Assembly: GCA_045131275.1 (NCBI GenBank) | Contig: JBGUQT010000043.1 | Location: 53,109 to 117,108, forward strand | Direction of reading: 5' to 3' | Length of the DNA: 64,000 bases | Origin: Treponema sp. | GTDB lineage: Bacteria; Spirochaetota; Spirochaetia; Treponematales; Treponemataceae | Shown here: piece by piece, positions 1 to 9,428 of the stretch | Position numbering within the stretch: position 1 is the stretch's first letter | How the letters are laid out: each line of letters opens with the position of its first letter | Translations under genes and position numbers: made by a program | Notes under the pieces: generated by a model | Seen by the model: only the letters and a program-made list of their open reading frames with translations | Told to the model about the DNA's origin: nothing | Databases searched by the model: none

Positions 1-843
1 GAAATTAGACAAATCGCCATTTATGGAAAAGGCGGAATCGGAAAATCGACAACGACGCAAAACTTGACCGCGGGCCTTGTAGAGCACGGAAAAAAAGTCA
101 TGGTCGTCGGCTGCGACCCCAAGGCCGATTCGACCCGCTTGCTTTTGGGAGGCCTCGCGCAAAAAACGGTTTTGGACACCATTCGCGACGAAGGCGAAGA
201 CGTCAAGCTTGACCGCATCATGCGAACAGGCTTTGGCGGAACCCGCTGCGTCGAATCGGGCGGACCTGAGCCAGGCGTCGGTTGCGCCGGCCGCGGCATC
301 ATCACTTCCATTAACATGCTGGAAAATCTTGGCGCCTACACCGACGACCTTGACTTTGTCTTTTACGACGTTCTTGGAGACGTAGTGTGCGGCGGCTTTG
401 CCATGCCGATTCGCGAAGGAAAGGCCAAGGAAATTTACATCGTCGCTTCGGGCGAGATGATGGCCCTTTACGCCGCCAACAACATCGCCAAGGGAATCAG
501 CCGTTACGCCAAGGCCGGCGGCGTCCGCCTTGGAGGAATCATTTGCAACAGCCGCAATGTCGACCGCGAGCTTGACCTTTTGCGCGCCTTTAGCAAGGAA
601 CTGGGAACCCAGCTTTTGTATTTCGTTCCCCGCGACAACATCGTTCAGCGCGCGGAGATAAACCGAAAGACTGTCATCGAATACAAGCCGGACTCAAACC
701 AAGCCAAGGAGTACAGGAATCTGGCCGAAGCGGTCATCAACAACCAAACCTTCACCATTCCGACGCCGATGACTCAAGAGCGCCTTGAGCAGATTTTGCT
801 TGAATACGGCCTCATGGACATGGCGGACGATTACAAAATATAA
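1..843 (+). CDS. nifH: NifH-like Fe protein (group IV nitrogenase-like reductase, MarH-like); 5' end truncated by window edge
   Basis: Frame open from base 1: [17 protein letters not shown] (P-loop), [19 protein letters not shown] and [11 protein letters not shown] carrying the two 4Fe-4S Cys. Confidence 0.93.
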
Positions 844-853
844 GGAAGGCCAG

Positions 854-1225
854 ATGGCGTACTTGATTGCGGTCGCGACAAGCGACGGAAGCAAAATCGA
901 CTTGCATTTTGGCCAGGCGGAGAGTTACTTGGTTTACGAAGCCGACGGAATTGAATGGCGCTTTGCCCAAAAGCGCGATTACGTTCCATCGGATAAAGGA
1001 GGCGCGGAAAATGAAGGATGCTGCGCGCAAGCGGGAGCGAAGGTTGAGCTTTTAAAGGATTGCAGGGCTGTCGTGGCGGCGCGGATTGGATTTAAGGTAC
1101 AAAAAGAGTTTTCCCGATTGGGGATTTCTGTTTTTGACGAGTTGGATTGTTCGGTGGAAAAAGCGTTGAACGCAGTCGCCGAATATTTTTACAAAGTGGA
1201 CAATCATATTGCCCAAAACAAATAA
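854..1225 (+). CDS. NifX/NifB-C/NafY family metallocluster-binding protein
   Basis: AAGGAAGG RBS before ATG 854; IAVAT..G..IDLHFGQAE...VYE and DCRAVVAARIG motifs. Confidence 0.8.
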   Translation: MAYLIAVATSDGSKIDLHFGQAESYLVYEADGIEWRFAQKRDYVPSDKGGAENEGCCAQAGAKVELLKDCRAVVAARIGFKVQKEFSRLGISVFDELDCSVEKALNAVAEYFYKVDNHIAQNK

Positions 1226-1237
1226 CAGGAGTAATAA

Positions 1238-6343: not shown

Positions 6344-7096
6344 ATGTTAAAGGCGACTAACGTTCACAAAGCGTTTGGAAAAAACGAAATTCTAAAAGGC
6401 GTTGACCTCGAAGTCAAAAAGGGAGACGTCGTGGTCATCCTTGGACCTTCCGGCTCGGGAAAGACAACCTTTTTGCGCTGCCTTGACTTTATGGAAACCG
6501 CCGACCAAGGAACTTTGGACTTTGACACGATAAAGACTTCCCTTTCGCGCGCGCATAAGAAAACAATTCTCGAAGTAAGAAGAAAGACCGGCTTTGTCTT
6601 TCAAAACTTCAACTTGTTCAACAACAAGACCGCGCTTGAAAACGTCATGGAAGGCCTTGTCACTGCCCGAAAGATTCCCAAAGACAAAGCCAAAGAAATC
6701 GCCGAGCGCACGCTAAAAAAAGTCGGCCTTTTGGACAGAAAAGATTTTTATCCCTCGCAGCTTTCTGGCGGCCAGCAGCAAAGAGTCGGAATCGCGCGCG
6801 CGATCGCTCCAAATCCCGACGTGGTCTTTTTTGACGAGCCGACAAGCGCCCTTGATCCTGAATTGGTCGGCGAAGTTCTTTCTGTAATAAAGGAGCTTGC
6901 AAAAGAAGGAATGACGATGATTGTCGTCACCCACGAAATGTCTTTTGCCGAAGAAGTCGCCTCCCAAGTTGTTTTTATGGACGGAGGAGTTGTGGTTGAA
7001 AAAGGAACTGCAAAAGAAATCTTCAACAATCCCAAAGAAGAAAGAACGCGGCAATTTTTGCAGAGAACTCTCAAGCGCGTTGAATATGTAATTTAG
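6344..7096 (+). CDS. Polar amino-acid ABC transporter ATP-binding protein (GlnQ/TcyN-like)
   Basis: [34 protein letters not shown]. Confidence 0.95.
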
Positions 7097-7107
7097 CGAG
7101 GCGAAAA

Positions 7108-8259
7108 ATGGACCTTAAATTGGATTCAAAATGCGTTCACTTGGAAAAAATTTCGACGGACGGTTGCAAGCGCTATGGCTCTGTAAGTTTTCCAATTTAT
7201 CAAACCGCCACTTACGCCCATCCAGGCGTAGGCCAGAGCGGAGGCTACGACTACAGCCGCCTTCAAAATCCTACCAGGGAGCGAGTAGAAAAACTTGTTT
7301 GCCAATTGGAAGGCGGGCTCGACGCGCTGGCCCTTTCTAGCGGAATGGCGGCGATAAGTCTTGTGATGGAAATGTTTTCGCCGGGCGACCACATCATCGT
7401 TGACGCTGACCTTTACGGCGGCTCCATAAGGCTCTTTGACAACGTTTCAAGAAAAAATGGAATTGAATTTTCGCGCGCCAATTTTGCCAGCGACAACATT
7501 GAAGTTTTGATAAAACCAAACACAAAAGCGCTTTACATCGAAACTCCAACCAATCCAATGATGAACATAACGGACATCGCCGCCATCGCGAATCTGGCAA
7601 AAAAGCGCGGTGTCCTTTTAATAGTTGACAATACCTTTATGTCGCCTTACTTCCAAAACCCGCTCGCCCTTGGCGCCGACATCGTTGTCCATTCAGGAAC
7701 AAAATATTTGAGCGGTCATAACGACACGCTCTCTGGCTTTGTGGTCACAAACCGCGCGGACATCCAAGAAAAACTGCGCTTTCTAATCAAGACTACGGGG
7801 GCGGGACTTCCGCCATTTGACAGCTGGCTTACCATACGCGGCATAAAAACTTTGGCGCTTAGAATGGAGCGCGCGCAAGAGAACGCCCAAAAAATCGCCG
7901 TATGGCTAAAGACTCAAAAATCAGTTGAGCGCGTCCTTTACCCAGGACTTCCTGAACATCCGGGTCACGAGATACAAAAAAAACAAGCGCGCGGATTTGG
8001 CGCCATGCTGACGTTCAACTTGGAAACGGAAGAAAAAGCAAAGGCCGTTCTTGGCAGCGTCCGCTTGATTCAATTTGCCGAAAGCCTTGGCGGAGTCGAA
8101 ACACTAATTACATATCCAGTCACTCAGACCCATGCGGACGTTCCCGAAGAAATCCGCCTCAAAAACGGAATCAGTCCAAAGACTCTACGACTTTCCGTTG
8201 GCATAGAAAATTCCGACGATTTGATTCAAGACTTGCGACAAGCGATGGAGAGCCTATGA
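7108..8259 (+). CDS. PLP-dependent trans-sulfuration enzyme (cystathionine gamma-synthase/lyase, MetB/MetI family)
   Basis: YDYSRLQNPTR, SSGMAA, ETPTNP, VDNTF, HSGTKYLSGH (PLP Lys), ESLGG, LRLSVGIE. Confidence 0.92.
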   Translation: MDLKLDSKCVHLEKISTDGCKRYGSVSFPIYQTATYAHPGVGQSGGYDYSRLQNPTRERVEKLVCQLEGGLDALALSSGMAAISLVMEMFSPGDHIIVDADLYGGSIRLFDNVSRKNGIEFSRANFASDNIEVLIKPNTKALYIETPTNPMMNITDIAAIANLAKKRGVLLIVDNTFMSPYFQNPLALGADIVVHSGTKYLSGHNDTLSGFVVTNRADIQEKLRFLIKTTGAGLPPFDSWLTIRGIKTLALRMERAQENAQKIAVWLKTQKSVERVLYPGLPEHPGHEIQKKQARGFGAMLTFNLETEEKAKAVLGSVRLIQFAESLGGVETLITYPVTQTHADVPEEIRLKNGISPKTLRLSVGIENSDDLIQDLRQAMESL

Positions 8260-9428
8260 AATTTGACTTTGACAAAGTAACGGATAGAAAAAACACCTTT
8301 GCGATAAAGTATGACCTTGCCAAAGAAAGGAACAAGCCTCAAGACGCGATAAGCCTTTGGGTGGCTGACATGGATTTTCCAACCGCTCCTTGCATTCAAA
8401 AGGCGCTTGCCGAACGCGCTCGGCACGGAATCTTTGGCTACAGCCGGCCCGACGGCAGATACTACCAAGCGCTAAAAAATTGGTTCAAGAGCCGGCACGA
8501 TTTTGAAATCCAAGACGAATGGATCGTGAACACACCAGGCGTTGTTTTTGCGATAACGGCGGCGATAAAGGCGTTTACAAACGAAGGCGACGGAGTCTTG
8601 ATTCAAAAGCCGGTTTACTATCCCTTCTTCAACATGATAAGGGCCTTGGGCCGCCGCGTGTTCAACAACCCGCTTGTCCTAAAAAACGGCTTATACCAAA
8701 TTGACTTTGACGACTTTGAAAACAAAATTGTTTCAGAAAAAATAAAGCTTTTTATTTTATGCTCGCCCCACAATCCCGGCGGCCGCGTTTGGACGCGCGA
8801 AGAACTTTTGCGCCTAAGCGAAATTTGCGCGAAGCATAAAACAATTGTCGTCAGCGATGAAATTCATTCCGACATAACTTTTGAAGGCCATAAGCACACA
8901 ATCTGGGCGTCGCTATCAAAGGAAGCGGCGGACTCTTCGATAATTTGCACGTCGCCAATCAAAACCTTTAACCTTGCGGGCTTGCAAATTTCAAACATCA
9001 TAATTCCCAACAAAGAAATCCGCGCGTACTTCAAAAATGAGTGCGACAAGACAGGATACGACGAGCCCAACCTTATGGGAATCGCCGCCGCGACGGCGGC
9101 TTACTCGGAAGGCGCGGAATGGTTTGACCAAGCCAAAGATTACATTTGGCAAAACATTCAATTCGCTATAGAATACATAAAGCAAAACTGCCCAAAAATT
9201 CGCGCGGTCGAGCCGCAAGGAACATACCTTTTGTGGCTGGACTTTTCGGCCTTTGCCGGCTTGAGCGACCATGAAATTTCGGACAAGATTTTAAACAAGG
9301 CCAAGGTCTGGCTGGACGACGGAAGGATGTTCGGGTCCGAGGGAGAAAAATTCCAACGAATAAATTGCGCGACGCCAAGGCCGATTTTGCAAGAGGCCTT
9401 AAAAAGAATTTGCGCCGAGTTTAGTTGA
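8256..9428 (+). CDS. MalY/PatB family PLP C-S lyase (cystathionine beta-lyase / cystalysin-like)
   Basis: LWVADMDF, GIFGY, PVYYPF, LCSPHNPGGRVW, SDEIH, SPIKTFNLAGL, QRINCA. Confidence 0.92.
   Translation: MKFDFDKVTDRKNTFAIKYDLAKERNKPQDAISLWVADMDFPTAPCIQKALAERARHGIFGYSRPDGRYYQALKNWFKSRHDFEIQDEWIVNTPGVVFAITAAIKAFTNEGDGVLIQKPVYYPFFNMIRALGRRVFNNPLVLKNGLYQIDFDDFENKIVSEKIKLFILCSPHNPGGRVWTREELLRLSEICAKHKTIVVSDEIHSDITFEGHKHTIWASLSKEAADSSIICTSPIKTFNLAGLQISNIIIPNKEIRAYFKNECDKTGYDEPNLMGIAAATAAYSEGAEWFDQAKDYIWQNIQFAIEYIKQNCPKIRAVEPQGTYLLWLDFSAFAGLSDHEISDKILNKAKVWLDDGRMFGSEGEKFQRINCATPRPILQEALKRICAEFS

Follow-up and report, generated by a model that had tools for sequence, protein, structure and literature searches.

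Nitrogenase-like (NFL) enzymes of Group IV are the closest described relatives of the locus reported here. Group IV-C is the Mar clade, in which 15 of the 20 systems tested were active, and Groups IV-A, IV-D, IV-E and IV-F fell below the Mar cut-off in the same screen, except for one IV-A system on dimethyl sulfide (DMS) (PMC13753814). As far as the accessible part of that study goes, five of nine IV-D systems were tested and none had physiologically relevant activity on DMS, ethyl methyl sulfide (EMS) or 2-(methylthio)ethanol (MT-EtOH). Table S1 of the study includes an IV-D system from Treponema saccharophilum, so this kind of cluster is already known in Treponema. The available portion of a review (PMC13474568) ascribes Mar control to SalR and MarS, with no mention of CymR and no function for IV-D, and its section 10 counts the function of uncharacterised nitrogenase-like clades among the greatest challenges of the field, with gene context being of little help.

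Here we examined a window of 64,000 nucleotides from a Treponema sp. genome (GCA_045131275.1, contig JBGUQT010000043.1, positions 53,109 to 117,108 of the forward strand), which begins with a ten-gene operon encoding an Fe protein (NflH), a catalytic pair (NflD and NflK), an amino-acid importer and two pyridoxal phosphate (PLP) enzymes. A preliminary description of the window had taken the pair for MarDK, working on an imported S-containing amino acid. Judged by its sequence, the pair is a Group IV-D nitrogenase-like pair and not Mar (Group IV-C). Our preferred reading, to which we give a probability of about 45%, is that the operon would serve in sulfur starvation, for the oxygen-free reductive dealkylation of imported S-substituted cysteine to cysteine.

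Clade placement of the D/K pairs

Groups were anchored on rows of Table S1 of PMC13753814 (about 35 of its 75 rows), with Butyrivibrio sp. AC2005 (L136) and Eubacterium xylanophilum (L042; Exy_D) as the IV-D references. The IV-C references came from a motif scan, the single Mar-type locus in each of five named organisms being assumed to be the tested one, and relatives were drawn from scans of GTDB contigs only, as best matches to the proteins of this locus. The window D was 51% identical to both IV-D references and joined them with a support of 100 in a 158-row FastTree tree as well as in a 59-row IQ-TREE tree rooted on three NifD. IV-C formed a separate clade (support 100), with IV-D as its sister (support 85, 59-row tree), and holding the window D with IV-C was rejected by the approximately unbiased (AU) test (p=5.7e-9). 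The MarDK identity first proposed was thus abandoned. Since the published screen was negative for IV-D, complementation of a Rhodospirillum rubrum mar mutant on DMS, EMS or MT-EtOH would be expected to fail.

A second D/K pair was found upstream of the window, its D being 39% identical to the window D. Placing it with IV-C was also rejected (AU test, p=4.9e-5). It grouped instead with Heliophilum fasciatum NflDK1 (L276, matched by contig and coordinates; 54% identity, support 99), which is the single IV-A reference and has been placed with the IV-A Nfa of Endomicrobium proavitum in the accessible part of PMC9147875. By eye, the start of the upstream D resembles the group A start of B. fibrisolvens. 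As a separate observation, a deeper D/K pair in K-D order, after cysK, stood beside the IV-D pairs of L013, L015, L034, L035, L044, L046 and L049.

Cluster ligands and active-site residues

The D/K motifs quoted in the preliminary description were present, and both proteins were closer to the Mar than to the Nif proteins, as it had stated: D scored 398 bits against R. rubrum MarD vs 141 bits against the best NifD, and K scored 410 bits against MarK vs 80 bits against the best NifD. In the AlphaFold model of D (pLDDT 90.5), the top Foldseek match was 9FMG (TM 0.93, 43% identity). NflD keeps the P-cluster residues Cys52, Cys77 and Cys144 and the catalytic-cluster residues Cys255 and His412, plus Arg411, Trp181 and His360. 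The P-cluster cysteines, Cys270, His429, Arg428, Trp195 and His375 of MarD were kept in 35 of 35 IV-D rows (MarD numbering follows PMC12552129, section 8, and PMC13474568, section 8.2.2; MarK numbering follows the latter), and are described as common to nearly all Group IV (PMC13753814, PMC13474568). No P-cluster or catalytic-cluster ligand of MarDK is missing from D/K, and NflH, MarB and NflX are all encoded in the locus, from which we infer an enzyme with an L-type cluster. The positions of NifD Gln191 and His195 are Trp181 and Phe185 in the window D, as in MarD, and the His ligand lies in a MarD-type loop and not in one like that of NifD His442.

What sets IV-D apart is a group of substitutions around the catalytic cluster. 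Tyr271 of MarD was replaced by Glu (Glu256 in the window D) in 52 of 53 IV-D rows, Ser351 by Asp (Asp336) in 49 of 53, and His449 by Asn (Asn433) in all 53, while Trp229 became Gln, Glu, Leu or Ala and Cys73 mostly Thr. Neither acid occurred at these two sites in any of 108 IV-A or 38 IV-C rows. Glu256 adjoins the cluster ligand Cys255 in sequence, and the two acids could face an opened pocket and hold the amine of a substrate. Phe199 was changed to Trp in L030 and L031 and to Arg in L013 and L015, probably as substrate variants.

Organisation of the locus

The window operon consists of ten ORFs, all on the + strand and tightly packed, whose families agree with those already named in the preliminary description. 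Neighbouring genes are separated by 3–12 nt or overlap by 4 nt, with the exception of 47 nt 5′ of the D gene. The features, in window coordinates, are as follows:

1..843, +, nflH, ATP-dependent Fe protein (NflH Group I type), its ATG lying 6 nt upstream of the window edge
820..840, +, C-terminal extension of NflH ending D-D-Y-K-I, a predicted CysK-docking tail (from sequence, conservation, a NifH control and likeness to S. aureus CysE/CymR decapeptides)
854..1225, +, nflX, NifX/NifB-C-terminal cofactor carrier, second copy of the locus (PF02579, 1e-16; 31% to the upstream copy)
1238..2098, +, family-3 substrate-binding lipoprotein, TcyK/cystine branch (best PDB matches Lmo2349 4GVO, YckB, YtmK 2O1M, 2YLN and 4EQ9)
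2146..3591, +, NflD, Group IV-D (trees, ligand residues, AlphaFold model)
3588..4952, +, NflK, P-cluster Cys12, Cys36 and Cys101 kept; Ala at the position of the extra MarK Cys52
4956..5636, +, ATP-binding cassette (ABC) permease 1, polar amino acid family, best family cystine permease (family profiles)
5633..6334, +, ABC permease 2, polar amino acid family (family profiles)
6344..7096, +, ABC ATPase, best family TcyN (below cut-off), ending E-Y-V-I, a second predicted CysK-docking tail
7108..8259, +, Cys/Met-metabolism PLP enzyme, likely a cystathionine gamma-synthase (CGS) of MetI/MetB type with a D-Y-S-R motif (PF01053)
8256..9428, +, PatB/MalY C-S lyase, cystathionine beta-lyase type (TIGR04350 above cut-off)

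NflH exceeded the NCBIfam nifH cut-off (461.8 vs 394.35 bits) and PatB that of TIGR04350 (461.5 vs 340 bits), while D and K reached no Nif, Vnf, Anf or NifEN family cut-off in NCBIfam (for nifD, 141 vs the 653 bits needed). The operon is nitrogenase-like and not a nitrogenase, as the preliminary description had it, both from these scores and from the differing Gln191/His195 positions. The NflH proteins of L136 and L042, the two IV-D reference loci, share 85% and 89% identity, respectively, with the window NflH, and Table S1 of PMC13753814 assigns both to NflH group I. Of the first eight related loci, seven came from Treponema-type genomes (73–92% identity), and L003–L006 had the same gene order, which argues against an assembly artefact and also places the source organism.

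On the same strand, the locus continues upstream to twice the size of the window operon. The second module spans L001:8097-17857 (L001 being our numbering of the locus) and ends directly before the window operon. Its genes, with their L001 start positions, are:

8097, same strand, metN
8858, same strand, metI
9631, same strand, metQ
10474, same strand, second D, Group IV-A
11953, same strand, second K, partner of the IV-A D
13311, same strand, upstream nflX
13693, same strand, marB, truncated NifB-type
14582, same strand, mccB, cystathionine gamma-lyase (CGL)-like
15827, same strand, mccA, CBS/CysK-like
16919, same strand, cysK, directly upstream of the window operon

The single D/K pair of the preliminary description is thus correct within the window and not for the locus, while the marB that it suggested should be sought upstream is indeed there. 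In the assembly, which is 86% complete, we identified one nifH-like gene, one nifB-like gene and two D/K pairs, and no nifDK, nifEN (as already noted for the window) or further nifH or nifB. The two catalytic pairs would therefore share one Fe protein and one maturase; NflH and NflB common to two D/K pairs are also recorded in the accessible rows of Table S1 of PMC13753814. The marBHDK gene set without nifEN is that of IV-C Mar, and the co-location with sulfur genes is that of Group IV-D NFL. Wiring to sulfur rather than nitrogen, as proposed before, was borne out by sulfur genes on both sides and by the absence of PII genes among the locus ORFs (window and upstream). The genome has MetA, MetE, LuxS and two MetY, and no match to PAPS-reductase, sulfite-reductase or MetH families was found in the 86% complete assembly.

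A GC-rich hairpin followed by T residues lies at 2099-2145, between the binding-protein gene and D, and could stabilise the upstream message or lower read-through. The gene for the epoxyqueuosine reductase QueH (9421-10215, - strand) overlaps the end of patB head-on and is followed by carB (10318-13566, + strand), both being outside the module. Many Treponema relatives carry the upstream module alone, with nflH directly after marB. Five RNA runs had shares of 0.05–0.24; the reads of four of them over L001:8000-20000 gave short contigs only, mostly from relatives at 85–95% identity.

Gene neighbourhoods of IV-D and IV-A loci

To compare the surroundings of the two clades, neighbouring ORFs within 6 kb of D were labelled by their best BLAST match to the 20 proteins of the locus, with identity floors, in 156 related loci (52 IV-D and 104 IV-A); the window's own locus and the IV-C loci, which had 3-kb flanks, were left out. 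The IV-D loci had the polar amino-acid ABC system in 32 cases, the CGS-type enzyme in 20, PatB in 20 and cysK in 22; MetNIQ was in none, and mccB and mccA were in two each, both loci also holding an IV-A module. The IV-A loci showed the mirror image, with MetNIQ in 46, mccB in 34, mccA in 30 and cysK in 6, a polar ABC system in one, and neither CGS-type enzyme nor PatB. When only loci with full flanks were counted, the numbers were 24 (polar ABC), 15 (CGS) and 15 (PatB) of 32 for IV-D, and 23 (MetNIQ), 20 (mccB) and 18 (mccA) of 56 for IV-A. The link of IV-D with the polar ABC system was found in Spirochaetota, Bacillota, Bacteroidota and Planctomycetota.

PatB always accompanied the CGS-type enzyme in IV-D loci (20 and 20). 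The window CGS-type enzyme and its MccB-type paralog belong to separate clades that track the D clade, and in the Y-x-Y-S-R motif they carry Asp (as E. coli CGS D45) vs Glu (as yeast CGL E48). Low-identity PLP enzymes numbered 4 in IV-D loci, 0 of 4 being of MetY length or type, and 61 in IV-A loci, where 7 of the 9 scanned were MetY-type. As MetY stands beside IV-A and was not seen beside IV-D, the sulfur of IV-D seems to arrive as cysteine and not as free thiol. We infer that sulfur would enter at the methionine/homocysteine level in IV-A, needing reverse transsulfuration, and as cysteine in IV-D, needing the forward route. The methionine analogue considered as substrate in the preliminary description suits the upstream IV-A module, with its MetNIQ and MccAB, better than the window operon.

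The binding protein and the ATPase are nearest to the TcyK/TcyN branch, with all scores below the family cut-offs (33.5 bits to the cystine family of NCBIfam for the binding protein), and the nearest solved relatives of the binding protein are those given in the list above. Of these, Lmo2349 and YtmK are TcyK proteins, 4EQ9 binds glutathione and 2YLN binds cystine. Such relatives, of the cysteine/cystine branch, agree with the importer for an S-containing amino acid proposed earlier. Listeria TcyK binds cystine and cysteine and not nine other amino acids (accessible part of PMC9239247). In B. subtilis, the ytmI/ytn operon with TcyJKLMN breaks down S-alkylcysteines by oxygen-dependent monooxygenases, with recovery of cysteine (PMC12757645).

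Sulfur control: a shared palindrome and C-terminal tails

A palindrome, CCTA-N9-TAG(G/A), was detected about 50 nt 5′ of nflH, cysK and metN, and also 5′ of metY and of the only Rrf2 gene of the genome. It resembles the B. subtilis CymR consensus. Genome-wide there were 27 matches, 12 of them intergenic, and 5 of these 12 are the nflH, cysK, metN, metY and Rrf2 sites. Altered spacers served as controls, a block-shuffle null being uninformative (146–188 matches expected vs 27 seen, with motif words depleted). Among 159 related loci, the palindrome preceded a locus gene in 28, vs 2–7 for six other spacers. A scan for promoters and terminators gave a TTGACA site 5′ of metN and was otherwise uninformative. 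The Rrf2 protein (G000:C33:20564-20998) is Cys-free, ends Y-M-Y-M-I and has its own box at 21039; a Cys-free Rrf2 with an Ile tail and a shared palindrome 5′ of sulfur genes are the marks of a CymR regulon, and we regard it as a candidate CymR-type regulator in a spirochaete. CymR has so far been described only in Gram-positive bacteria, according to the accessible text of bioRxiv 2024.09.19.614015.

NflH, the window ATPase and MetN all end Y-x-I. This ending, noticed after the fact, occurs in 8 of 3383 ORFs of the genome vs 4.2 expected; three of the eight lie in the 20-gene locus and a fourth is the Rrf2 protein. Among homologs, 20 of 21 distinct ATPase tails end [YF]-x-I, 32 of 33 MetN end in Ile and 74 of 77 NflH with at least 70% identity have the tail, while homologs of D, K, B, the permeases and the PLP enzymes had no such tail. 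An alignment of 60 NflH, all picked from the tailed group, showed no variation at Tyr280 or Ile282. Within the genus, the tail was on 29 of 29 scored NflH (30 loci, one cut; own genome counted), vs none of 25 scored true NifH adjoining nifD in the phylum, which were all shorter and did not end in Ile (29 loci). S. aureus CysE and CymR bind CysK by ends of the same form, from which O-acetylserine displaces them (bioRxiv 2024.09.19.614015), and the D-D-Y-K-I of NflH is close to the D-D-Y-I-I of S. aureus CysE and the M-F-Y-I of CymR. With a conserved free C-terminal Ile and an aromatic residue two before it, as in known CysK-binding partners, the tails of NflH and of the ABC ATPase are predicted to dock CysK. 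The palindrome, these tails and the second D/K pair had escaped the preliminary description, whose overall reading is supported in part.

Other Ile-ended proteins were also encountered. An amino-acid ABC ATPase (G000:C2:1197-1961) ends D-G-I, and one of two CysE-like proteins (C57:29299-30255) ends M-W-I, both being candidate CysK partners. The Group II NflH of Bacillota (L059-L080, L114, L300) have another Ile tail, G-I or A-I, in 11 of 18 cases, and most MetN end G-x-G-I; these are possibly convergent CysK tails. None of 20 alphaproteobacterial MarH ended in Ile. We also considered the tail as the cause of the poor activity of Group I NflH in R. rubrum, and found this unsupported in view of two counterexamples, namely the Group-I-like NflH of C. 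ljungdahlii (L290, beside marB and D), which has no tail, and the F. succinogenes Group I system, which is active (PMC13753814).

Proposed pathway and alternative explanations

According to our preferred reading, the ABC system would import a cysteine-like amino acid, and NflHDK would reduce R-S-Cys to cysteine and R-H by cutting the S-C bond on the substituent side, with methane as product if R is methyl; Glu256 and Asp336 would hold the amine of the substrate. The CGS-type enzyme and PatB would turn part of the cysteine into homocysteine, and MetA and MetE would complete methionine. A CymR-type repressor may act at the box before nflH, and CysK may sit on the Y-x-I ends of NflH and of the ATPase under ample sulfur, to be displaced by O-acetylserine in shortage. 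The upstream IV-A module would be the mirror, with an importer for methionine, entry of sulfur at methionine/homocysteine, and MccAB making cysteine. The wider generalisation, in which IV-D enzymes are S-alkylcysteine reductases that convert a non-volatile amino acid of the diet, such as S-methylcysteine, straight to cysteine and a hydrocarbon, so that rumen non-methanogens make methane as they scavenge sulfur, IV-A is their methionine-side mirror and CysK plugs the tails of the Fe protein and of both importers, is considerably more speculative, and we would put it at roughly one chance in four.

Several observations weigh against the preferred reading. PatB-type lyases alone can release thiol from S-alkylcysteines, so that a costly reductase would not be needed for S-methylcysteine. 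As many as 20 of the 52 IV-D loci lack a polar ABC system within 6 kb (many are short), and the neighbour counts are not independent, since the loci are best matches to the proteins of this locus and are related to one another. The IV-D subclade of termite Treponema (L016, L039-L051) has an NMT1/SsuA-type importer and keeps Glu256/Asp336, and a protein with a serine-dehydratase alpha domain in six IV-D loci (L008, L018, L030, L031, L036, L136), near a divergent Cys/Met PLP enzyme in four of the six, speaks against a single substrate. No solved structure comes close to the binding protein (best 59 bits alone), which also varies widely within IV-D (24–88% identity), so its predicted ligand is a class and not a compound. 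Identification of the PLP enzyme as a likely CGS and not a CGL comes from the tree and one residue, as NCBIfam and PDB comparison do not separate the two; substitution at that residue has subtle effects only, in the accessible part of PMC6073527. The lining of the pocket by Glu256/Asp336 is suggested by their places in the sequence, next to Cys270 and within the cluster-wrapping loop of MarD. The strict box was not enriched genome-wide over a control with a 10-nt spacer (5 vs 5 intergenic). Finally, among 16 H-like matches from five Clostridium genomes one had an extension, 6 of 7 sulfur-linked Group-I-like Clostridium NflH had no tail, and 2 of 4 PII-linked true Clostridium NifH end in a bare Ile.

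The same enzymes could be arranged in two steps, with PatB freeing R-SH from an S-alkylcysteine, the IV-D enzyme reducing R-SH to sulfide and R-H, and CysK fixing the sulfide. PatB and cysK are present in 20 and 22 of the 52 IV-D loci, and the cleavage of ethanedithiol by R. palustris Mar2 shows that this fold can act on thiols (accessible text of bioRxiv 2026.08.20.746119). We still hold this route to be improbable, as the constant pairing of PatB with the CGS-type enzyme is that expected for forward transsulfuration, MetY, the natural acceptor of sulfide or thiol, was not seen in IV-D loci, and the two conserved acids would be a better match for a substrate with an amine than for a plain thiol. 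Somewhat less probable again is an amino acid with oxidised sulfur (S-methylcysteine sulfoxide, cysteate, S-sulfocysteine or a taurine-like compound), reduced or cleaved at that sulfur. It would explain why an NMT1/SsuA-type importer replaces the polar one in 7–10 IV-D loci, would agree with the opened pocket where MarD Trp229 is replaced, and has a precedent in Group IV-F with isethionate (PMC13753814). Importers of the NMT1/SsuA type are also present in 29–39 IV-A loci, though, and hence are not specific to IV-D, which weakens the sulfonate reading; IV-D is sister to IV-C and not to deeper groups; and no sulfite reductase family for released sulfite was found in the 86% complete assembly.

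Another reading, the one closest to the preliminary description, is a functional Mar with DMS or other volatile thioethers as substrate, in which the importer and the PLP enzymes belong only to a co-regulated sulfur-starvation island. It would fit with MarD as the closest solved structure and with the kept Trp195, Cys270, His375, Arg428 and His429. The published screen is also not airtight for IV-D, because three IV-D rows of Table S1 have Group I NflH, poorly compatible with R. rubrum (PMC13753814). We nevertheless find it quite unlikely, given the AU rejection of IV-C membership, the failure of every tested IV-D system to reach the Mar cut-off (PMC13753814) and neighbour sets that are clade-specific and not generic; moreover, a lipoprotein importer would be superfluous for volatile thioethers, and yet the operon has its gene between nflX and nflD. 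Far less credible than any of these is fixation of N2 or reduction of another nitrogen compound (Nfa-like, most plausibly by the upstream IV-A pair, with the window pair supporting it). NflH does pass the nifH cut-off, and the upstream D groups with the H. fasciatum NflDK1 proposed as an Nfa nitrogenase, but the NifD Gln191/His195 positions are Trp/Phe as in MarD, nifEN and nifDK were not found in the 86% complete assembly, nor PII genes among the locus ORFs, sulfur genes lie on both sides, and one box is common to metY, cysK, metN and the Rrf2 gene. Across the genus, 42 of the 151 genomes searched have an NflH-type protein that exceeds the cut-off of the nifH family, and nifD was found in 0 of 24, so that calling nitrogen fixation from nifH would give false results in these treponemes.

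Comparison with known systems

We found no IV-D substrate and no CysK tail on a NifH-like protein in the literature covered, from which most subscription papers and the supplements of preprints were absent. The IV-D clade itself is known; the proposed substrate class and the predicted CysK tail on a nitrogenase-like Fe protein would be new. Reading gene context clade by clade gives a short list of substrates for IV-D and would explain why a screen on volatile thioethers would miss the substrate. If the dealkylation reading is true, nitrogenase clusters would gain a new reaction, the S-alkylcysteine pathway of Bacillus would have a counterpart that needs no oxygen, and rumen methane might have a minor source outside the archaea. 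The tail would be a new, post-translational way for a metabolic enzyme to regulate an Fe protein of the nitrogenase family.

The nearest systems are the Group IV-D NFL of Butyrivibrio sp. AC2005, E. xylanophilum and T. saccharophilum, which belong to the same clade as the window pair. A tailed NflH, the polar amino-acid ABC system, the CGS-type enzyme and PatB are likewise present in the Butyrivibrio and E. xylanophilum loci. The locus reported here departs from them in its IV-A partner pair and in the place of the binding-protein gene, between nflX and nflD, with otherwise no essential difference. With the methylthio-alkane reductase MarBHDK of R. rubrum (PDB 9FMG, 9D9U), the locus shares the fold, six P-cluster cysteines, MarB, NflX, the sulfur context, the lack of NifEN and, on our reading, reductive cleavage for sulfur at a cluster of nitrogenase type. 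It differs in that MarD Cys73, Gln74, His194, Trp229, Tyr271, Ser351 and His449 are changed, with Glu and Asp gained, that MarK Cys52 is absent, and in its dedicated amino-acid importer, its predicted Rrf2/CymR-type control and its CysK-type tails.

The B. subtilis ytmI operon (snaA-tcyJKLMN-cmo) has in common a TcyK-like importer and, on our reading of the window operon, CymR/CysK control and the recovery of cysteine from S-modified cysteines. That pathway acetylates its substrate, cleaves it with flavin monooxygenases and O2, and deacetylates it, whereas the window operon has neither acetyltransferase nor monooxygenase and would cleave reductively. In the CysK complexes with CysE and CymR, an Ile tail sits in the active site of CysK, and in the present locus ABC ATPases and a nitrogenase-like Fe protein have tails of the same form. 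R. palustris has several paralogs that differ in substrate (bioRxiv 2026.08.20.746119). The upstream pair belongs to the same group as the IV-A Nfa of E. proavitum and H. fasciatum NflDK1, but its association with MetNIQ, MccAB and a CymR-like box points to sulfur and not N2, and questions the nitrogen-fixing label of that branch.

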